Made by a program: the position numbers and the translations under genes. Positions 3,267 through 63,389 of a stretch of 64,000 nt of DNA are shown piece by piece. This DNA comes from Acidobacteriota bacterium (lineage in GTDB: Bacteria > Acidobacteriota > UBA890 > WLXD01). The notes beneath the pieces were generated by a model. The model saw only the letters and a program-made list of their open reading frames with translations, was not told where the DNA came from and searched no databases. Position 1 is the first letter of the stretch; each line of letters starts with the position of its first letter. The stretch covers positions 5,161,691 through 5,225,690 of the forward strand of contig CBDFKD010000002.1 in assembly GCA_965248695.1 (NCBI GenBank). The letters are read 5' to 3'.

Positions 3267-5261
3267 TCAGGTCCGCTCCGCCCACGGATACTGGAACTCC
3301 GGCCTGATCACGTCACCGATGAGGTCCTGAACGGCGCGATGCGCTTGATCCATCGCCGCATGCGTCAGGCTGGTGGCAGCGGCATCCGAGTTGGCCACGG
3401 CAATGCGACCAAATCGCTTCCGGCCGACCACCCAGGGGACCTCGTCGTAGCCCCATTCCGGGTCGTAGAGATCGTTGGCGCCGCCGGCATAGCCATGAGG
3501 CCATCGGTTGACGGTGATCGCGCTGATCTCCTCGGCGGGGTCGAAGCCGCCGCCTGCGAGGGCGCGCCCAAGCTCGTCGCGGATGCGGTACTCGAAGTAA
3601 TCGAACGATGTGGCGAGCAGCTCCTCGCGGCCGGCCCGGAACTGTTCCCTGGCAGAGAGACCAGGCTTGTGCGCGGGCATGCGCTGCAAGTGAAGCGGCT
3701 GAGGATCATCGGGGGTCCGGGCGCAGGTGTAGTCGCCGAGACTCCGATTCATGTCCAGCATCGCCGACCCGTGGTAGCAGCCGGGACCGTAGAAGCTGTT
3801 GATCCCGAGTGCCTCAAACGCCCTCCAGTTGCGCACCACGACGTTCGTGTAGACGAGCGGCTGGCGCACGGCCATCTTCAGCGCCGCCTTCTGCTCGTCG
3901 GGAAAGTCGGGACAGAGGTAGGGGATCATGGAGTTGTAGCAGGCCATGACGCAGGTGGCGCCGCGGGCCCGGTAGGCCTTGCCGTCACGCACGTAGGTGA
4001 CCTCGACCTCGCTGGCAGTGCGGCGCTCGCCGACGTGGCGGACGTTGACCACGGTGCTGTTGAGGCGGACGCGCGCGGCGCTGCCGTCTTCATCGATGGC
4101 GGCGTAGTCGACCGGCGTCGCCACCGAGTCTTCCATCGTCGTTCCCGGGAGAGCCTTCGGAATCAGCCATCTGACGATCAGTCGAGCGATCGCGGCATTG
4201 CCGTCGGGGAAGTGCACTCCCTCGCCGAAGTCGTTACCCTCGCCAAGCCAGCTCTCGGGCGGTCGCTCGAGACGCAGGCCGTCGAAGCCGGGCAGGGAGC
4301 CGGTGCGAAACGCTCCCCAGGCGCTATAGGAGTCGATCCTGGCCGCACCGTTGGAGCCGCCTTCAGCACGGCGCATGAAGAAGGGCATGACACCGGGATC
4401 GGCTTTGACGATCTTCAGAAGATAATCCTGGTAGCTCATCTTCCGCAGACGCGAGACCTTCTCATCGGAGGTCAATCCGGTTAGATAGTCGGTGTTGTCG
4501 TCGTAGGCGCGGGCGATATCGTGTTTGACGACATCAGTTAGCGGCGCATCGGCCAGGAACTGCGTCCATGTGAGCGTGCTACGAACCGAGCCCCAGCCGG
4601 CGGGATCTCCCACCGACAGGTGGTCGGCGCCGAACGTTTCCTGATCAAAGAAGACACCGGCCTGTAGGCCCATCTCGCGGTAAATGCTGCGATCGGCCGC
4701 CGTCGTCCGCAGGAAGCGTTGCTTGTCGATCCCGATGTCCTCCAGCAGCGCCTTTGCCTCGTGCGGGTAGCTGTTAGCGCCGTGGATCATCATCGTGCCG
4801 CCGTAGCCGATGACCAGCTTGCCATCGACCTCGAACTCGTTGCGCTTGGCGTGCCCGCCGAAGTCATCGTGATTGTCGAGAATCAGAATTCGCGCCTCCG
4901 GCAACGCCTTGCGGAAGAAGTACGCCGCCGACAACCCGCTCAGCCCACCACCGACGACGATGAGGTCGTAGCTCTCGCCGGTGTCCTCGGCGTTGTCCCA
5001 GGTCTTCCCATAGCGCATCTCGTGCGCTACTTCGTAGGAGCCCTCGTGACTGCCCCGCATGCCGGTGAGCCGCGGCGGGTAGTACTCGCCCGGCTGCGCT
5101 GCGGAAACGCCTGACCCGTTTGTCGAGCCCTTCGAGCCTGCGGGAGCCCCCGGCCTCCCGGCACCGACCAGGCCGCCGCCAATTGCGACGCTGGCCCCGT
5201 TGAGAAAATCCCGGCGGCTGATGTCACGGTCCATCCCGAGCTCTCGGTCAGTCTTGGTCAC
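3267..5261 (-). CDS. Tat-signal FAD/NAD(P)-binding oxidoreductase, spermidine dehydrogenase (SpdH)-like
   Basis: Twin-arginine motif SRRDFLNG at the N-terminus. Dinucleotide-binding motif VVGGGLSGL. 664 aa. SpdH-like call is from memory of the family. Confidence 0.6.
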   Translation of the reverse strand: MTKTDRELGMDRDISRRDFLNGASVAIGGGLVGAGRPGAPAGSKGSTNGSGVSAAQPGEYYPPRLTGMRGSHEGSYEVAHEMRYGKTWDNAEDTGESYDLIVVGGGLSGLSAAYFFRKALPEARILILDNHDDFGGHAKRNEFEVDGKLVIGYGGTMMIHGANSYPHEAKALLEDIGIDKQRFLRTTAADRSIYREMGLQAGVFFDQETFGADHLSVGDPAGWGSVRSTLTWTQFLADAPLTDVVKHDIARAYDDNTDYLTGLTSDEKVSRLRKMSYQDYLLKIVKADPGVMPFFMRRAEGGSNGAARIDSYSAWGAFRTGSLPGFDGLRLERPPESWLGEGNDFGEGVHFPDGNAAIARLIVRWLIPKALPGTTMEDSVATPVDYAAIDEDGSAARVRLNSTVVNVRHVGERRTASEVEVTYVRDGKAYRARGATCVMACYNSMIPYLCPDFPDEQKAALKMAVRQPLVYTNVVVRNWRAFEALGINSFYGPGCYHGSAMLDMNRSLGDYTCARTPDDPQPLHLQRMPAHKPGLSAREQFRAGREELLATSFDYFEYRIRDELGRALAGGGFDPAEEISAITVNRWPHGYAGGANDLYDPEWGYDEVPWVVGRKRFGRIAVANSDAAATSLTHAAMDQAHRAVQDLIGDVIRPEFQYPWAERT

Positions 5262-53722: not shown

Positions 53723-54421
53723 CTAGCTGGAGTTGAACCGAACCTCTAGCTCCTTGACAACATCCAGCAGGGTTGCTGTCGACGCCGGTAACAATACGTA
53801 GTACAGCGGCTCTCCGTCTCCAGCACCGGCCCGCGGTTCGATAACAAAAACCTTTTCGGCGAGAGTTGCCGCAAATGACGTGACGCTGTCTTTGGCCTCG
53901 TAGGTCACGCGGTACCCGATGCGCAACGGGAGCAAATGGTGTTCGTCAGCGTAGGGGCTCACGGTTGCCGGTTCGAGGGTCTGCTCGACGAACTCCTGGA
54001 ACGCAGAGGAGAACATCCGTCGAAAGTCGATGTCGAGGGTGCAGATGCAGAAACTGTCCTGTGTCTCTGCGATGGGGACCATCGCGTCAACGTCGCACAG
54101 GCCGGACTCGACGAAACACTGCATGAGCTGGGCGTGGAACTCGTCCGCGTTTTCCGATGTGCCGAGCACCGTCGAGGAGATCCGCCGGGGCTCTACCCGC
54201 GTATGCATGATCGGCACCGCCGTGTCTTCGTCCAGCTGGTACGCGCCCCTCTCGAATACCACGGTATCTAGCCCGGCTTCGCCCAGGTTCGGGTTTACGT
54301 TGTTGAAACCGAACTCGGTGATGAGCTTGTTGCCAAGGCCTGCTGACAACACGGCCCCCGCAGGAAGCACGTCCGATCTAAAGATGCGCGTCTGGCTGAC
54401 GCTCAGTCGTCGAACCTTCAC
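53723..54421 (-). CDS. Unknown 232-aa protein, third gene of a toxin/HTH operon
   Basis: GTG start overlaps the stop of the upstream HTH gene (GTGA). No motif recognised. Confidence 0.5.
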   Translation of the reverse strand: MKVRRLSVSQTRIFRSDVLPAGAVLSAGLGNKLITEFGFNNVNPNLGEAGLDTVVFERGAYQLDEDTAVPIMHTRVEPRRISSTVLGTSENADEFHAQLMQCFVESGLCDVDAMVPIAETQDSFCICTLDIDFRRMFSSAFQEFVEQTLEPATVSPYADEHHLLPLRIGYRVTYEAKDSVTSFAATLAEKVFVIEPRAGAGDGEPLYYVLLPASTATLLDVVKELEVRFNSS

Positions 54422-55471: not shown

Positions 55472-55914
55472 GGAGAAGATGGGCGTTGACGGTACCTTAT
55501 CACGATACTGTGATGCTGCGAGTTGACGGCGCTTTCGGCGACTCACCTGGCGGGCAGCGATTATCACGGGCCATCCGGCGGGTATCGGGCGCACCCCCCA
55601 GTTCCTCCCCCACCGTAGAAAACACCGTGCGGCCCTTCGAAAAGGCCGCCCGGCGCTTGCGGGCACGTCGAAGCCCCTCAGCTTCGCGCGGCGGGAAAGA
55701 TAGCACGCGAGAAGATCGCCGGCACTTCAGCTGCCTGCCAGCAGATGCGGCGCCAGGCATGGCACAGGTGCTCGCGGCCAAAAAGCGGTCTTGATGAGCA
55801 ACCAAAAGAGCGGCCGGAGGAGGTATCGTAGCGAACGTACCGTTCCGACCGCTCTTTCGTTCTTCGTGTACCGGGTGGTGGTGGGCTGGTGCCGGCTCCG
55901 GGCTTCCTATCTAC

Positions 55915-55947
55915 GGGTCACGGGTTCGATCCCCGCCACCTCCACAC
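55915..55947 (+). other. tRNA/tmRNA 3'-end-like fragment (possible former att site)
   Basis: ACGGGTTCGATCCCCGCCACCTCCACA gives a T-arm plus a 3' acceptor strand. No convincing 5' half lies within normal tRNA distance. Confidence 0.45.
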
Positions 55948-56029
55948 CGTTACCACCACACTAAACCTCCCGCGCACGTAGTCGTCAACGCTGATCGGCC
56001 ACTCGGGTACAAAATAAGGCTGGAGCATT

Positions 56030-56305
56030 TCATTTGCCGGCTTCGGGGGCAACGAAGATCTCCTTCGCATCGTGCGATGACAGCGTGATTTCCCGGTCCT
56101 CGTTATCGCCGATGTAACCAACGTCTGCGAGCGTCACAGTTCTTCCAACATCTTCCGGTGCTACCACGATGCTCAGAGGCAGTTCGGAGGATCTCGGAAA
56201 CATGTACATTCGCGTTAGGAAGCCGCGATTCACAGCCTCAGCCAACTCAGCGGCAGCAACGTCTTTCGTGATGCCTTCGATGCTCGCGTATTCAGCTACG
56301 TCCAA
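56030..56305 (-). CDS. Hypothetical 91-aa protein
   Basis: TTG-initiated ORF. No motif. Confidence 0.3.
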   Translation of the reverse strand: MDVAEYASIEGITKDVAAAELAEAVNRGFLTRMYMFPRSSELPLSIVVAPEDVGRTVTLADVGYIGDNEDREITLSSHDAKEIFVAPEAGK

Positions 56306-56356
56306 ATAGCGCCCCCCCGTTCGACGGTATACAGTCTCGATCTAAATAGCACCTAG

Positions 56357-56408
56357 CCCGAGGGTAGAGAGACAATCCGATCAGAGGAAGGTGCTCTCTA
56401 CCCTCGGG
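56357..56408. repeat. Perfect 15-bp inverted repeat (hairpin)
   Basis: CCCGAGGGTAGAGAG at 56357-56371 pairs with CTCTCTACCCTCGGG at 56394-56408. 22-nt loop. Confidence 0.6.
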
Positions 56409-56422
56409 GGCTTGGATCTGGT

Positions 56423-56548
56423 CGCATCAAGAGCCTCAGCGGCCGGCGGATCAGGTTCGGGCGGCCCGCCGTGCTCATCGGTGCCGTGCGGAGCCCTGGG
56501 CGTGGATGGGAGCCGGGTGTCGCCGTCGGGATCGCGGTTACCTGGTAG
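56423..56548 (+). pseudogene. 3' remnant of a second spanin-like gene
   Basis: Translates to RIKSLSGRRIRFGRPAVLIGAVRSPGRGWEPGVAVGIAVTW*. This is colinear with the C-terminus of 52981-53670 (RRKSLEGRRVRLAPALLIGGIRDLSGTDGWRAGVAVGIAITW*). Confidence 0.65.
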
Positions 56549-56561
56549 GGAGGCGTGTGAT

Positions 56562-56774
56562 TTACCCCAACACCACTAGAGTATCGATCGTTGTCCCTAG
56601 CGCTCTAGCAATGCGGGACAGCGCGGCTGTAGAGCCGGGCTTGAGCCCACGTTCGATCTCAGACAGATATCCTGTAGCGATGCCCGTCTTGGCGGTGAGG
56701 TCGCGCACTGTGATGCCGTAGTGGGCGCGGAATGCAACGATTGGGCGTTCACCCTCCATAATGGCAAGTGCCAC
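56562..56774 (-). CDS. XRE-family HTH antitoxin-like protein, probably 5' truncated
   Basis: HTH GITVRDLTAKTGIATGYLSEIERG. The frame stays open upstream (SKEELEDRLAALEADDGSRIPHEV) to a TAA in an AT-rich junction at about 56868, with no earlier canonical start. Confidence 0.5.
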   Translation of the reverse strand: MALAIMEGERPIVAFRAHYGITVRDLTAKTGIATGYLSEIERGLKPGSTAALSRIARALGTTIDTLVVLG

Positions 56775-57032
56775 CTCGTGCGGGATACGGCTCCCATCAT
56801 CTGCCTCGAGTGCGGCTAACCGATCCTCAAGTTCTTCCTTGCTGGCAACAAGGGCATCGTGAATTTATTGCAATTCATAATTTCTGGATAATTTGCAGTT
56901 GCTTCTGCAGTTCACCTGTACTGAACGAAGACGAAGTGATCGACCAGTACGGCATCGCGCCCGAGCGGGAACACCAGAAAGGCCGCCTGCGGCTGATCAG
57001 CTTACGAGAGGCGTCTGCCTGAGAAGAAAGGT

Positions 57033-57119
57033 GCCATCGTGGCGAAATCGGCAAACGCACCCGGTTTGCGACCGGGCGGCTGTCTAGGCCTTGTGGGTTC
57101 GAGTCCCACCGATGGCACC
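57033..57119 (+). tRNA. Class II (long variable arm) tRNA, Leu-type body, anticodon UGC
   Basis: Acceptor 57033-57039 pairs with 57110-57116. 3-bp D stem with an 11-nt loop. Anticodon stem 57060-57064 pairs with 57072-57076, loop TTTGCGA. 16-nt variable arm. T arm GTGGG TTCGAGT CCCAC. Discriminator A followed by CC. Confidence 0.7.
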
Positions 57120-57189
57120 TAAAGTACCTCCAGCAGCATCGAACCGTAGCCGCCGTGCCGCCACGATGGCGAATGTTACTTGTAACAGT

Positions 57190-57345
57190 ATGGCGCAACG
57201 TGACACAGACCGTAAGGAACCGTCGAAGCCCGGCCCTGATGCCGAGCGGCTGAAGATCGACGACGATCCCGAGGAAGCCCTACAGCGGCTCCTGAAGAAC
57301 GCCCCCGCGCCAGAAGAACCGCGACCGCCCCGTCGACCGCGTTGA
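57190..57345 (+). CDS. Small hypothetical protein (51 aa)
   Basis: ORF MAQRDTDRKEPSKPGPDAERLKIDDDPEEALQRLLK... No strong SD. Confidence 0.25.
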   Translation: MAQRDTDRKEPSKPGPDAERLKIDDDPEEALQRLLKNAPAPEEPRPPRRPR

Positions 57346-57421
57346 CTGACAACAGCCGGTATTCAGCGACCGTCGCCACCCTCAGCAGATTTCAACAGGT
57401 ACATACTCCCGAATACCTTTG

Positions 57422-57465
57422 AACAAAATATCGGGTGGCCCTCGTTTCTTCGATAGGCCACCCGA
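57422..57465 (-). terminator. Rho-independent terminator (minus strand)
   Basis: 10-bp stem, 57431-57440 pairing with 57456-57465. On the minus strand it is followed by TATTTTGTT. Confidence 0.55.
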
Positions 57466-57539
57466 AGAAGTCCCGTAGCTCAGGGACACCCGTCTCACGT
57501 GCCCCCTAGGTTAGCACAAGCGAAGCGCTCCACAGCGCC

Positions 57540-57727
57540 GGTTTTGAGATAACGAACCAAAGGTGGTCGTCGTGAATGCCGGTCGTGTCGTGAAAGCTGT
57601 CGCCGGCCTCAACAATCACCCCGCTGCACCAGCTGATCGGATTATGTCGACCTTCTTGCTGAACGCGTTTGTTAGGCGAGTAAATCTGCGCATGTTCATG
57701 CGCATGGTCAGGTTCTGCCGCTCGATT
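57540..57727 (-). pseudogene. IS1-family transposase 3' fragment
   Basis: Encodes ERQNLTMRMNMRRFTRLTNAFSKK, compared with ERQNLTMRMSMRRFTRLTNGFSKS in the intact copy at 59059-59895. Downstream frames are broken, and the fragment is truncated at 57727. Confidence 0.6.
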
Positions 57728-57887
57728 CGCCGGAGAGCCGATGAGCTAGAAGAACTTCTCATCGAAAGCGTCGATGACCCATCCGACCTCGACCACGAGC
57801 GCGTCAAGGCTCTCGAATACAGCCAAGCCGGTATCAGGCCCCATACCTTCGCCGAAGACTACGCGCGCGACCACAAGCGTATCCATT
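57726..57887. repeat. 162-bp perfect direct repeat, copy A
   Basis: Identical base for base to 62546-62707. Confidence 0.9.
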
Positions 57888-58098
57888 CGGCAACTAATGC
57901 AGATCCGAATCCGAAAATGAGAGCAAACCGCAACAGCGATCGCGTCGGCTGCGAGAATGCCCCCGGCAAACGGGTGCTGTCCTAATTTGAACTGCTCGAA
58001 GTTTATGAGTGATTTACAACGATTTATATCATGCAGGATGGACTCTCCCTTAACTTACTTTATACTTTCACTTAAATCGTATTGACGGGAGAGAGACT

Positions 58099-58701
58099 AT
58101 GGTTCTAGGCTCTGACAGGTTGTGGGAAACGGCGTTTAGGGGACTCATGGACCCGAAATTGCTTGTCGAAAGGTACCAGTACTTATCCAGGAAGCGACGC
58201 GAGATCGAGGGGAAGATGGCGGCCCTGGCGGAAATGCAGCAAGTCTTAGGGGTGGAATTGGACGACGTAAACGACCAGCGCGCCATGCTTTGGCTTCAGC
58301 TCGATCGACAGGCTCTGCTTGATCGTGACGATATCCGCGAGTATCTCGGTGACGCCACGAAGCCGCCTGGCATCAAGCGCGTGCGTGCCGAACAGGTAGA
58401 CCGAGACTTGATGAGATACCTGGCCAATCAAGATGGTCGGGAATGGCGCGTCCGGGACATCCTCACGCACAAGAACGCCATGCGGCTCGGCCATATGTCT
58501 GATAGCGGTGTTCGGGCGGCGATTAACCGCGCCATCGAGCGCGGCGAACTGGAGAAGACTGGCGGATGGGGGATCGTTCGCGTATCGGACCGAGGTAAGG
58601 AGTCTTACGGTCTTGATGCCGAGGCTGACTTGGAAGAACAAGACATGGACCTGGCCGAGAAAGAGGCCATGGAAAAGGAGAAGGCTAGGCCACCGTTCTG
58701 A
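58099..58701 (+). CDS. Hypothetical protein with a winged-helix-like C-terminal region
   Basis: ORF preceded by an AT-rich region with TTGACG. No family recognised. Confidence 0.4.
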   Translation: MVLGSDRLWETAFRGLMDPKLLVERYQYLSRKRREIEGKMAALAEMQQVLGVELDDVNDQRAMLWLQLDRQALLDRDDIREYLGDATKPPGIKRVRAEQVDRDLMRYLANQDGREWRVRDILTHKNAMRLGHMSDSGVRAAINRAIERGELEKTGGWGIVRVSDRGKESYGLDAEADLEEQDMDLAEKEAMEKEKARPPF

Positions 58702-58706
58702 ACAAA

Positions 58707-58738
58707 GAGCCCGCCGCTGCGGTAACAGCGACGGGCTC
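58707..58738 (+). terminator. Hairpin after 58099-58701
   Basis: 13-bp stem with one mismatch and a 6-nt loop. No U-tract. Confidence 0.35.
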
Positions 58739-58752
58739 CGACAACTTGTGAT

Positions 58753-58827
58753 GGCCTCGTGGACAACAGACGGTCAAGTCGCGGGACTGGAAATCCCGAG
58801 ATCCCGGTTCGACACCGGGCGGGGCCT
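58753..58827 (+). tRNA. Class I tRNA, Cys-like body, anticodon GGA
   Basis: Acceptor GGCCTCG pairs with CGGGGCC (one G-U pair). Anticodon stem CGGGA/TCCCG with loop CTGGAAA. 4-nt variable loop. T arm CCCGG TTCGACA CCGGG. Discriminator T. CCA not encoded. Confidence 0.65.
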
Positions 58828-58999
58828 CACCTTTCTCCCCTGACAGCAAGGAGGGTCAGATGATAGCGCGAGCACCACCGTCAGCGCATCCCTGAACGCC
58901 GAAGGGGCCGGGGTGCGTCTCACGATGCTCCCCGGCCACCTATAAGTCGCCCGGCCCGCTGCACGAACAGCGAACCGGGCTAGATCCAAGACGCGGGCA

Positions 59000-59960
59000 T
59001 AGGCCGCATCGGACCCTCACAGCCATTGTGGTCCTGCCCGCCATCCGGAGCAAGACCGATGGCGAACGTACTGGCCCCCGAGAAGAAGCGCATGATCATC
59101 GCCGCCCTGGTGGAGGGCAACAGCATCCGCAGCATCGAGCGCATGACCGGCTGTCACCGAGACACGATCTGCCGGCTGCTCGTGCGGGTAGGTGAAGGCT
59201 GCGAAGCCATGATGCGCGAGCGGTTCACCGGTTTGCGCCTTGACGATCTCCAGGTCGATGAAATCTGGACCTACGTCCAGAAGAAGCAGGCCACGGTGAT
59301 CAGGTCCGGCAAGCGCGTGAATCCCAAGCATGGTGATCAATGGGTTTTCGTCGCGCTCGATGCCGAAACGAAGTTGGTGCCGCATTGGATCGTCGGCAAG
59401 CGCGACGGCTACAACTCCTACCAGATGATCTCGGAGCTGGCCCGTAGGATCGACGGGCCGTTCCAACTGACCACGGACGCTTTCGCTGGCTACAAGGCCG
59501 CTCTCGGAGTCGTGGCGGCTCGTGGTATCGACTACGCACAGCAGACCAAGAGCTATACGGCCACGAATCCATCCTTCGGACGTTACTCACCACCAAGGGT
59601 CAGCCACTGCACAACTCAGGTTGTGGCCGGAGATCCAGATCCGGAGGCGATCTCCACGAGCTACGTCGAGCGTCAGAACCTGACCATGCGGATGAGTATG
59701 CGACGGTTCACCCGGCTGACGAACGGCTTCTCAAAGTCGCTGCGCAACCTGGAAGCCGCTGTGTCGCTGCACTTCGCCTGGTACAACTTCGTGCGGATTC
59801 ACGACAGCCTGCGGAGCACGCCGGCCGTTGTGGCCGAAGTAGTTAGTACCGAGTTGGCGATGGACGACCTGCTGGCCTTCGAGGCGGGCTACTAATGCTC
59901 GGTGATTTCCACAGGATATCCACAACGGGTGGCGCTCCTGTTGATGATGACCCCCAACAT
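59000..59960 (+). mobile_element. IS1-family insertion sequence (ends approximate)
   Basis: Single transposase ORF. Short similar inverted blocks CCATTGTGG at about 59023 and CCACAACGG at about 59921. Exact termini not resolved. Confidence 0.4.
59059..59895 (+). CDS. IS1-family transposase
   Basis: N-terminal HTH (GNSIRSIERMTGCHRDTICRLL). DDE region. C-terminal YVERQNLTMRMSMRRFTRLTNGFSK motif. Confidence 0.75.
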   Translation: MANVLAPEKKRMIIAALVEGNSIRSIERMTGCHRDTICRLLVRVGEGCEAMMRERFTGLRLDDLQVDEIWTYVQKKQATVIRSGKRVNPKHGDQWVFVALDAETKLVPHWIVGKRDGYNSYQMISELARRIDGPFQLTTDAFAGYKAALGVVAARGIDYAQQTKSYTATNPSFGRYSPPRVSHCTTQVVAGDPDPEAISTSYVERQNLTMRMSMRRFTRLTNGFSKSLRNLEAAVSLHFAWYNFVRIHDSLRSTPAVVAEVVSTELAMDDLLAFEAGY

Positions 59961-62415: not shown

Positions 62416-62545
62416 GACGAATACTCATACTCGACGAGGTCGCATAGAAACCCCATGACGCTACCGAACGCAGACACCCACACGCCACTGCGGAATCAGG
62501 CGGGTAGCGCAGTGGGCGAGGCCATCGTCACGCTTCTCATGGAGC

Positions 62546-62707
62546 TTCGCCGGAGAGCCGATGAGCTAGAAGAACTTCTCATCGAAAGCGTCGATGACCC
62601 ATCCGACCTCGACCACGAGCGCGTCAAGGCTCTCGAATACAGCCAAGCCGGTATCAGGCCCCATACCTTCGCCGAAGACTACGCGCGCGACCACAAGCGT
62701 ATCCATT
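62546..62707. repeat. 162-bp perfect direct repeat, copy B
   Basis: Identical to 57726-57887. Covers the 3' end of the minus-strand gene 62566-63327. Confidence 0.9.
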
Positions 62708-63327
62708 TGCACTTTTGGGGGTGCAGAGAAGACGAGGGTCGCGATTTTTGCGTTGTGTACCAGGCGGGGCTTGGTGACGGCGATGAACGTTTTGGGCTGG
62801 CCAGCGGATTCGTCATCGACGAGAGCGTTCAAACGGAAGCGCTCGGGCATCGCGGCGACGACCGAGAGCAATTTGTGCTTGTTCCGGTTGTCCAGTCTTC
62901 TCAGAAGGGAGAGGGGCGCCATCACGGGATCGTCACCTTGGTACGGCTGAACTCGCTCGATCAAGGATCTGGCCTCAGCGGGAAGGCTGGCAATGCGCCG
63001 AGCCCCGCGCGATTCGTATGCCCGTTCGGAGTCGAAGATCGGAAACAGGGTCAGTGTGTCATCAAGATCCGCCCCAGAAAGCTCCCAGGCGATGTAGTCG
63101 AGCGAGCACCGCAGGTTGTGGATGCAATCGCCGATGGTCAGCGCCCACTCACTACTGGGCAAAGCAGGAGGATCTTTGACGCGAGCGACGTAGCGGACTT
63201 CGTCGATCTCAGCCTCAACGACGATTCGATAGAGGTTCGCTTCAAAGAAGGAGTCAGTTTCTCTTTTAAGCGCTTCGAGGTGCTGTCTCGCCCGACGAAG
63301 TTTGGCGCGACTTCCATCAAGCCCCAA
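62566..63327 (-). CDS. Unknown protein downstream of an XRE regulator
   Basis: ORF open to 63432. Start chosen at the TTG at 63327, 9 nt after GAGGAG. Blocks GDCIHNLRCSLDYIAWEL and LRRLDNRNKHKLL. The plus-strand ORF 62455-63378 is judged an antisense shadow. Confidence 0.5.
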   Translation of the reverse strand: MGLDGSRAKLRRARQHLEALKRETDSFFEANLYRIVVEAEIDEVRYVARVKDPPALPSSEWALTIGDCIHNLRCSLDYIAWELSGADLDDTLTLFPIFDSERAYESRGARRIASLPAEARSLIERVQPYQGDDPVMAPLSLLRRLDNRNKHKLLSVVAAMPERFRLNALVDDESAGQPKTFIAVTKPRLVHNAKIATLVFSAPPKVQMDTLVVARVVFGEGMGPDTGLAVFESLDALVVEVGWVIDAFDEKFF

Positions 63328-63389
63328 TTGGCACAGCTCCTCGGGATTGAGGTCGACGACGACGGGGAGGCGGCGTGAGCGGCGTGAGG

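Follow-up and report, generated by a model that had tools for sequence, protein, structure and literature searches.

What does a tRNA with the body of a leucine tRNA and the anticodon of an alanine tRNA do in a bacterial genome? A gene for such a tRNA lies at positions 57033-57119 of the plus strand of a 64,000-nt stretch of DNA from an Acidobacteriota bacterium (contig CBDFKD010000002.1), which as a whole is called the window below. The interpretation given in a first-pass annotation, made from the letters of the window without database searches, is partly supported. It missed that the gene belongs to a module of an IS1595-family transposon, consisting of the tRNA, a small basic open reading frame (ORF) and a terminal inverted repeat. 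Comparison with complete elements in other genomes gives good support to the assignment of the candidate as the tRNA component of such a transposon. At the level of sequence, it is shown to be a conserved and structurally maintained component, which has the leucine identity set and no alanine identity element.

The tRNA gene and its identity elements

The class II cloverleaf drawn at these coordinates in the first-pass annotation is intact. ARAGORN calls an 87-nt tRNA-Ala(tgc) there on the plus strand, and the Rfam family RF00005 matches with 58.2 bits (gathering score 29, E = 5.6e-10), with model positions 1-71 complete. The acceptor stem GCCATCG/CGATGGC has seven Watson-Crick pairs in the sequence and in the Rfam alignment, and the latter gives a 7/5 geometry of the acceptor and T stems. 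The 3-bp D stem GCG/CGC, with a mismatch A13/A22, carries the 11-nt loop AAATCGGCAAA. The 5-bp anticodon stem CCCGG/CCGGG carries the 7-nt loop TTTGCGA, containing U33, the anticodon U34-G35-C36 (57067-57069) and G37. The variable region of 16 nt, CGGCTGTCTAGGCCTT, is able to form a 4-bp hairpin, and its last base is U48. The T arm GTGGG-TTCGAGT-CCCAC is canonical. The discriminator A73 (57117) is followed by CC and then by T, so that the CCA end is not encoded. None of the 20 stem pairs is broken in this copy, and U33, the T loop and A73 are preserved. The thermodynamic fold is only mildly better than that of shuffled sequence (z = -2.4). Since the folding energy alone is unremarkable, the case for a tRNA rests on the covariance model and the homologues.

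The leucine type of the body, proposed in the first-pass annotation, is borne out by comparison. The exact 19-nt D arm is present in 17 viral contigs, 13 of which have it in phage tRNA-Leu(UAA) genes. Isotype profiles were built from the class II tRNAs collected in this analysis, with the anticodon loop masked. The window tRNA scores 42.0 bits with the leucine profile, 24.8 bits with the tyrosine profile and 19.4 bits with the serine profile, a margin that is generous, as the leucine set was partly enriched for the D arm of the window.

Asahara et al. are said to have defined in 1993 the identity set of the leucyl-tRNA synthetase (LeuRS) of E. coli as A73, A14, the Levitt pair A15:U48, the placement of G18G19 and the class II shape (cited in PMC3333845). 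This set is complete in the window tRNA; the anticodon is UGC instead of the leucine anticodons NAG or YAA. On the alanine side, the anticodon is of the NGC type, as had been noted, whereas the class I body with a variable loop of 4-5 nt is absent. So is the pair G3:U70, a near-universal determinant of alanyl-tRNA synthetase (AlaRS) (PMC8583063). As also noted before, position 3:70 is occupied by C:G, and there is no G:U pair anywhere in the acceptor stem.

A leader of 17 nt lies directly 5' of the tRNA (57016-57032, plus strand). It forms the left limit of the surviving element, as similarity to a second copy, described below, begins here. Its last three bases, GGT at 57030-57032, are complementary to A73-C74-C75, in agreement with the earlier observation on the precursor. 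In 28 of 135 relatives (genome and metagenome loci), pairing with the leader adds 3 bp or more to the acceptor stem, compared with about 5% expected, although the figure may be inflated by the relatedness of the sequences. The three extra pairs fall outside the mature tRNA, whose geometry in the Rfam alignment is 7/5 and not 8/4 or 9/3.

The IS1595-family element and its relatives

Downstream of the tRNA, at 57166-57345 of the plus strand, there is a small ORF encoding a basic protein of 59 aa, MANVTCNSMAQRDTDRKEPSKPGPDAERLKIDDDPEEALQRLLKNAPAPEEPRPPRRPR. No match to it was found in Pfam or NCBIfam. Its tblastn homologues lie directly 3' of tRNA(UGC) genes in the loci L204 and L212 (E = 1.6e-9), L194 and L138; further homologues were found in L402 (E = 8e-7) and L412 (E = 7e-6). 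The motif KPGPxxERLxIxxDPxxAxxxLLK is common to the homologues. The ORF is followed by a 24-nt terminal inverted repeat, TTTCAACAGGTACATACTCCCGAA, at 57390-57413 (plus strand), the candidate right end of an IS1595-family element. The repeat core TTCGGGAGTATGTAC has a single exact match in the window, on the minus strand at 57399-57413, against a chance expectation of 0.03. The same repeat also ends the tRNA module in L138 and L212.

Insertion sequences of the IS1595 family, as classified in ISfinder, encode a DDE transposase with an N-terminal zinc ribbon, have terminal inverted repeats and carry variable passenger ORFs. The elements described here resemble them in the transposase (PF12762 and PF12760), in the terminal inverted repeats and in the variability of passengers. 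A transposase of this family is present in the related elements L138, L204, L194, L402, L412 and L397. The modules with the small ORF in L204, L212, L194 and L138 all contain a divergent IS1595 transposase and a class II tRNA(UGC) directly 5' of the ORF. L204 and L212 are two copies on one Acidobacteriota chromosome, 100% identical over at least 2.2 kb; L194 comes from a Planctomycetota genome, and L138 from an Acidobacteriaceae genome.

The association was also tested in a manner blind to tRNAs. Homologues of the L138 transposase form more than 120 clusters at 72% identity or higher, named in their sources as IS1595 transposases of Terriglobia, and three clusters were picked among them. All three carry a class II tRNA(UGC) wherever the flank suffices. 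In L402, L403, L405, L412, L415, L416 and L417 it lies about 1.1 kb upstream of the transposase gene, in divergent orientation. In the third cluster (L397) the tRNA was missed by ARAGORN and scores 53 bits with Rfam. In each case the tRNA is followed by the small ORF and then by the inverted repeat. The tRNA lies between paired repeats, which agree at 20-23 of 24 positions, in L412 (positions 114 and 2541), L402 (125 and 3626) and L397 (1411 and 3900). The core of the clade with the anticodon UGC (the UGC clade) is thus a well-supported candidate unit of a DDE transposase, a class II leucine-bodied tRNA(UGC), a basic protein of 40-60 aa and 24-nt terminal repeats. The possibility that an insertion sequence merely inserts beside such tRNAs was rejected for the IS1595 clades, as both inverted repeats enclose the tRNA.

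The anticodon loops of the UGC elements are UUUGCAA, UUUGCGA, UUUGCAU or CUUGCAG. Positions U33-U34-G35-C36 are invariant, while all four stems differ. Because they are so strictly kept across elements with diverged stems, the anticodon itself must be under selection. The T loop is noncanonical in some members of the clade (UCCGAUC, UCCAAGC, UGCAAAU), and the D loop of L397 has no GG.

In the window itself, no IS1595 transposase was found by tblastn, and no second inverted repeat even with seven mismatches allowed. The copy can therefore be described as a one-ended remnant: the window appears to hold the right-hand part only (tRNA, small ORF and one repeat), the transposase gene and the left end having been lost through rearrangement. 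Several pieces of the window are shared, at 87-99% identity, with L248, a 4.36-Mb contig of an Acidobacteriota metagenome-assembled genome. By blastn, L248 1887-1967 corresponds to window 57016-57095 at 98.8%, and the sequence farther left is unrelated. This second copy is truncated: it consists of the 17-nt leader and the first 63 nt of the tRNA and breaks off inside the T stem. In L248 1788-1967 the tRNA leader is immediately preceded by a segment equivalent to window 55754-55861 in reverse complement. Relative to this copy, the window thus has an inversion or insertion of about 1.26 kb, and a 6-bp inverted match (caggca/tgcctg) is seen at the two junctions.

The combination of body and anticodon, for which a search of other genomes had been suggested, indeed recurs. 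One genome per species from 185,579 species was scanned for a degenerate leucine D arm followed at the correct spacing by U33-N-G-C-R37, a pattern that fixes neither position 73 nor the stems. It matched 116 loci, compared with about 2 expected by chance. About 55 of them are intact 7/5 class II tRNAs with the anticodons UGC, CGC, GGC or AGC, from Gemmatimonadota, sponge-associated Pseudomonadales (with variable arms of 29-32 nt), Acidobacteriota, Dehalococcoidia, Paracoccaceae, cyanobacteria and others. About 40 are false positives, namely tRNA-Leu(UAA) genes in which U34 is followed by a group I intron, and were used as controls. These split genes (L139, L140, L151, L153, L154, L156, L164, L169, L171 and about 30 more) belong to Alphaproteobacteria, Bdellovibrionales, Eremiobacterota, Usitatibacter and others.

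In the alignment of 51 distinct relatives with NGC anticodons, 17 of the 20 stem pairs have changed on both sides. The pair 3:70 is CG in 33 relatives, GC in 10, UA in 7 and AU in one, and never GU. Pairing of 99% of stem cells and A73 in 51 of 51 are not independent evidence, because the set was filtered for both; about four parses with another discriminator were dropped, two or three of which look spurious. Of the 135 relatives, 132 have U48. The context A37-C38, which is typical of tRNA-Ala, is found in many of the relatives.

Metagenomes were scanned with the same D arm, class II spacing, a T loop, A73 and any base other than A at position 35. At least 120 loci matched, and at least 84 of the tRNAs are distinct and intact. 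Among the matches listed, the anticodons are of the proline (UGG 30, AGG 4, CGG 2), ochre stop (UUA 8), alanine (CGC 8, UGC 1) and aspartate (GUC 5, AUC 2) types, and most of the rest are of the serine, glycine and arginine types together with UCA. About half of the non-leucine anticodons among them are one step at position 35 from a leucine anticodon. Leucine-bodied tRNAs with A73 and non-leucine anticodons therefore occur in many phyla, and alanine is not special. The ochre-suppressor type, with the loop CUUUAAA and the anticodon UUA, was seen in L261, L274, L286, L312, L318, L323, L329, L356 and L376. The gene in L376 (2435-2520), present in three samples, is followed at a distance of 480 nt by an IS1-like transposase gene.

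A looser pattern, allowing any anticodon without A35, gave at least 120 matches in viral contigs, those listed being mainly intron-bearing tRNA-Leu genes and phage class II tRNAs. Phage long-arm tRNAs were rejected as instances of the same phenomenon, since their discriminators match their anticodons (GUU or UUG with G73, GUG with C73).

The only recurrent neighbour of the odd tRNAs is an IS1595-family transposase (PF12762, PF12760). By tblastn, 11 of about 70 genome loci and 31-35 of 120 metagenome loci among the matches listed have it at a distance of no more than about 2 kb, compared with none of about 40 intron-containing controls; overall, roughly a third of the leucine-bodied A73 tRNAs with non-leucine anticodons are neighbours of such a transposase gene. 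The transposase clade tracks the anticodon: elements with UGC have transposases of 61-67% identity to the one in L138, and those with UGG belong to groups of 44-48% and 38-42% identity. In the UGG clade, the tRNA precedes the transposase gene on one strand, or the two converge, in the closest case at a distance of 8 nt, and a conserved basic ORF of 45-50 aa follows the transposase gene. A 27-nt terminal repeat, (A/T)TTTCGGAAGTATGTACTTTACGCAA, bounds units of 2.1-4.3 kb enclosing the tRNA (L339 at 333 and 2409, L368 at 270 and 2648, L322 at 5114 and 9404). No convincing target-site duplication was observed at the ends of L368.

In L339, L368, L351, L317, L266 and L352, a promoter-like block with the palindrome tACTTGACGCAAnnnnTTGCGTTAnGTATAAA is situated between the tRNA and the transposase gene, just upstream of the transposase start. 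The block is similar to the inner portion of the terminal repeat and could serve as an operator for autoregulation.

Two further candidates were rejected. A dedicated synthetase paralogue is not seen, as the Pfam survey of 129 neighbouring ORFs gave single, non-recurrent matches to methionyl- and glutamyl/glutaminyl-tRNA synthetases. A transposase that needs recoding is not seen either, as the conserved leucine, proline, alanine and aspartate columns are encoded normally and the ORFs are intact.

In Gemmatimonadota, leucine-bodied tRNAs with the anticodon CGC or GGC (L144, L146, L149, L191, L201, L207, L217, L228, L253) show conserved synteny with a gene for a Ser/Thr kinase-PD40 protein and have no transposase gene nearby. 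One contig has two copies (L191 and L201). Here the tRNA looks like a vertically inherited chromosomal gene.

Possible roles of the tRNA

Several natural systems are comparable. The nev-tRNAs of nematodes are class II tRNAs with glycine (CCC) or isoleucine (UAU) anticodons and are leucylated in vitro (PMC3333845, PMC4300185). They share with the tRNA of the window a leucine-type class II body, A73, an anticodon of another amino acid and conservation across species, and their synthetase ignores the anticodon. Judged by sequence features, the family considered here has the marks of nev-type hybrid identity: class II shape, A73, an anticodon belonging to neither leucine nor serine, and conservation across taxa. 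However, nev-tRNAs are eukaryotic, nuclear, described as nematode-specific and not linked to transposons, and they have other anticodons, whereas the present family is bacterial and sits inside IS1595 elements with a small ORF.

The allo-tRNAs, which have 8/4 or 9/3 geometry, serine identity and many anticodons, are toxic missense suppressors when expressed in E. coli (PMC5389517). They, too, are rare bacterial long-arm tRNAs with a mismatch of anticodon and identity, mostly from soil metagenomes including Acidobacteria. The difference is in the noncanonical geometry of acceptor and T stems and in the serine (or alanine) identity, as the tRNA of the window is a canonical 7/5 tRNA with leucine features. 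In Streptomyces, tRNAProX and ProRSx combine a mismatch of body and anticodon with proposed deliberate mistranslation (PMC10404621, PMC11415595). This is again a natural bacterial tRNA whose body and anticodon disagree, and alanine codons are among its targets. However, it has a class I proline-like body and an adjacent dedicated synthetase paralogue, whereas no such paralogue recurs near tRNAs of the window type.

A 2024 review of mistranslating tRNAs lists no bacterial leucine-bodied family (PMC11415595). No description of a bacterial tRNA with a leucine body and an alanine anticodon, or of a tRNA-carrying IS1595 element, was found in the open-access literature. A tRNA as core cargo of an insertion sequence is unexpected and apparently undescribed, and the present one apparently belongs among the hybrid-identity tRNAs. 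To our knowledge, no described insertion sequence carries a tRNA gene as a constant component.

By the rules established for the LeuRS of E. coli, the tRNA, once transcribed and provided with a CCA tail, would be charged with leucine by LeuRS. The known needs of this enzyme in bacteria (A73, A14, A15:U48, the placement of G18G19, class II shape) are kept, and the determinant of AlaRS is absent. The anticodon loop has the normal 7 nt, U33 and a purine at position 37. The leucylated nev-tRNAs of nematodes provide a precedent (PMC3333845). The charged tRNA would then read GCA and GCG and insert leucine for alanine at a level set by its expression. It may well be, and we tentatively favour this reading, that the tRNA is charged by LeuRS and that GCA and GCG are read as leucine.

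Several observations weigh against leucine insertion. No sigma-70-like promoter was found upstream of the tRNA in the window by a consensus of the E. coli type, perhaps not valid in Acidobacteriota, and the conserved leader is reduced to 17 nt. The element in the window is truncated, and the copy in L248 is broken inside the T stem. Some members of the clade have a degenerate elbow (the T loop, and the D loop in L397), with the anticodon loop still fixed. This fits a role in which the anticodon loop outweighs the canonical tertiary structure, and it makes the argument about LeuRS weaker for those members. Constitutive misreading of alanine codons as leucine should be harmful, and the transposase genes give no sign of needing recoding.

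A more general proposal is possible, although rather speculative. In IS1595 transposons of soil and marine bacteria, the core of a leucine-bodied tRNA, with the anticodon (UGC, UGG or another) fixed in each clade, and a small basic protein could form a switchable device for deliberate mistranslation of host codons or a tRNA-like ribonucleoprotein involved in transposition.

One alternative is that the tRNA-like RNA does not decode and is the transposon's own partner of the small basic protein, of the transposase or of both, regulating transposition, sensing, or acting through its anticodon loop. The tRNA, the small basic ORF and the transposase gene travel together between inverted repeats in two clades with different gene orders; this three-part core is constant while the passenger ORFs vary. 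The type of anticodon follows the transposase clade, and in some members the anticodon loop is better conserved than the elbow of the D and T loops. However, the retained A73 (in the set filtered for it), U48, U33, purine 37 and 7-nt loop are features of an aminoacylated tRNA competent on the ribosome. No complementarity was found between the anticodon loop or the variable arm and the ends of the element. Furthermore, tRNAs of this kind in Gemmatimonadota and the sponge-associated Pseudomonadales lie in chromosomal neighbourhoods that are conserved and contain no transposase gene. We know of no DDE transposase of the IS1 or IS1595 type that needs an RNA. On this evidence, a non-decoding role seems rather unlikely, yet it is the main competitor of leucine insertion and a serious one.

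For the window copy in particular, which may be silent, it is likewise rather unlikely that the gene is an inert relic left by a broken element, without transcription or selection in its present host, whatever the family does. The missing transposase gene and second repeat, the 17 nt of native upstream sequence, the negative promoter scan, the truncated sister copy in L248 and the surrounding patchwork of insertion sequence fragments and duplicated segments all point to a relic. On the other hand, the tRNA is intact in every stem pair and in U33, A73 and the T loop; the small ORF has kept its reading frame; and the promoter scan was limited to the E. coli-type consensus.

An ordinary duplicated tRNA-Leu with a drifted anticodon, that is, a pseudogene with no meaning at the level of the family, is very improbable and largely refuted. 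UGC is two substitutions from the leucine anticodon UAG, and G37 is typical of tRNA-Leu reading CUN codons; the metagenome anticodons one step from leucine also agree with drift. However, UGC with the same kind of body and the same module occurs in at least seven separate elements of various taxa, among which every stem has undergone compensatory changes, and nearly all stem cells are paired in the 51 relatives (a set filtered for pairing). The decaying duplicate, named by the first-pass annotation as the outcome that would undo its claim, is thus contradicted, as UGC is retained by relatives from other phyla. A true tRNA-Ala that AlaRS charges in spite of its unusual shape, for which the anticodon UGC, A73 and the A37-C38 context of many relatives might speak, has next to no chance, given the class II architecture and the absence of G:U from the acceptor stem here and from 3:70 in the 51 relatives.

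A natural tRNA with conflicting body and anticodon offers a rare test of the rigidity of the genetic code. The analysis adds a whole bacterial population of such tRNAs, in which a leucine body is combined with alanine, proline, aspartate, glycine, serine or stop anticodons and a large share lies physically inside active insertion sequences. If these tRNAs are charged and used, transposons would spread ready-made missense or suppressor tRNAs between genomes, with a bearing on proteome fidelity, stress-induced mutagenesis and the onset of codon reassignments. If they are not used in decoding, they would be a new RNA component of a DDE transposon. Leucine insertion by a mistranslation device or, alternatively, a transposition ribonucleoprotein would, if true, connect mobile DNA with the decoding machinery in a new way. 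For synthetic biology, the family is in addition a source of new anticodon-blind tRNA scaffolds.

Surroundings of the element in the window

The first about 27000 nt of the window are chromosomal in look, with genes for Rieske oxygenases, a PQQ dehydrogenase and ABC transporters. The region from about 27000 to 52000 is a prophage, encoding two N6/N4 DNA methylases, a DUF4055 portal protein, a P22-type coat protein and a tape measure protein of 1618 aa. No integrase was identified in it, it has no megablast match in the phage collection, and its GC skew is strongly positive over 30-46 kb. From position 54000 onward the GC content drops from about 64% to 58-61%, and the DNA is a patchwork of ORFs for Xre-type helix-turn-helix (HTH) proteins, an IS1-like transposase gene and fragments of the latter. 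The first-pass annotation had described a mosaic mobile region beside toxin-antitoxin remnants. The mobile and mosaic character of the DNA holds, whereas as for toxin-antitoxin remnants, the neighbours are only the Xre-type HTH ORFs. In megablast searches, no plasmid record matched 55500-59500 and no phage record matched 40000-64000.

The intact gene at 59026-59895 (plus strand) encodes an IS1-like DDE transposase, distant from IS1595, and represents a separate insertion sequence beside the remnant. Its NCBIfam matches to IS1 (E = 2.5e-17) and IS1595 (E = 1.7e-6) are both below the curated cut-offs; it has more than 8000 homologues and is named an IS1 family transposase by several sources. A gene fragment of the same type lies at 57649-57726 on the minus strand, where tblastn of the intact protein matches amino acids 214-239 at 81%, a sign of later rearrangement. 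In L390, an IS1-like transposase gene is situated between two 100% identical direct repeats of 300 nt (1619-1918 and 3838-4137), each containing a tRNA-Thr(CGU). The repeats are spaced by 2219 nt and are far too long for the target-site duplication of a DDE transposase.

A second tRNA with mismatched identity was found by ARAGORN at 58753-58828 (plus strand; Rfam 50.2 bits). It has a class I body, the serine anticodon GGA and U73, and lies 198 nt upstream of the IS1-like transposase gene, in the context of the IS1595 remnant and not as a part of it. Its homologue at L391 1085-1161 shares with it the acceptor stem (GGCCYCG), U73 and the 3' flank cacctttctc, whereas the anticodon loop of the homologue, CCUUGCAGA, is enlarged and differs from that of the window. 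The tRNA is lacking from three closer copies of the IS1-like insertion sequence (L392-394), whose similarity to the window begins at 58939. This insertion sequence may merely have inserted next to the tRNA.

At 55874-55945 (plus strand), ARAGORN calls a 72-nt tRNA-Arg(cct), which is below the Rfam gathering score and whose acceptor stem pairs poorly by eye. Only the T arm and the 3' end are tRNA-like, and the sequence may be a remnant of an attachment site. Finally, the patchwork contains internal duplicates. Residues 48-108 of the ORF at 57563-57985 recur at 62524-62706 with 88% identity, and 40 aa of the ORF at 62455-63378 recur at 57767-57886 with 100% identity.

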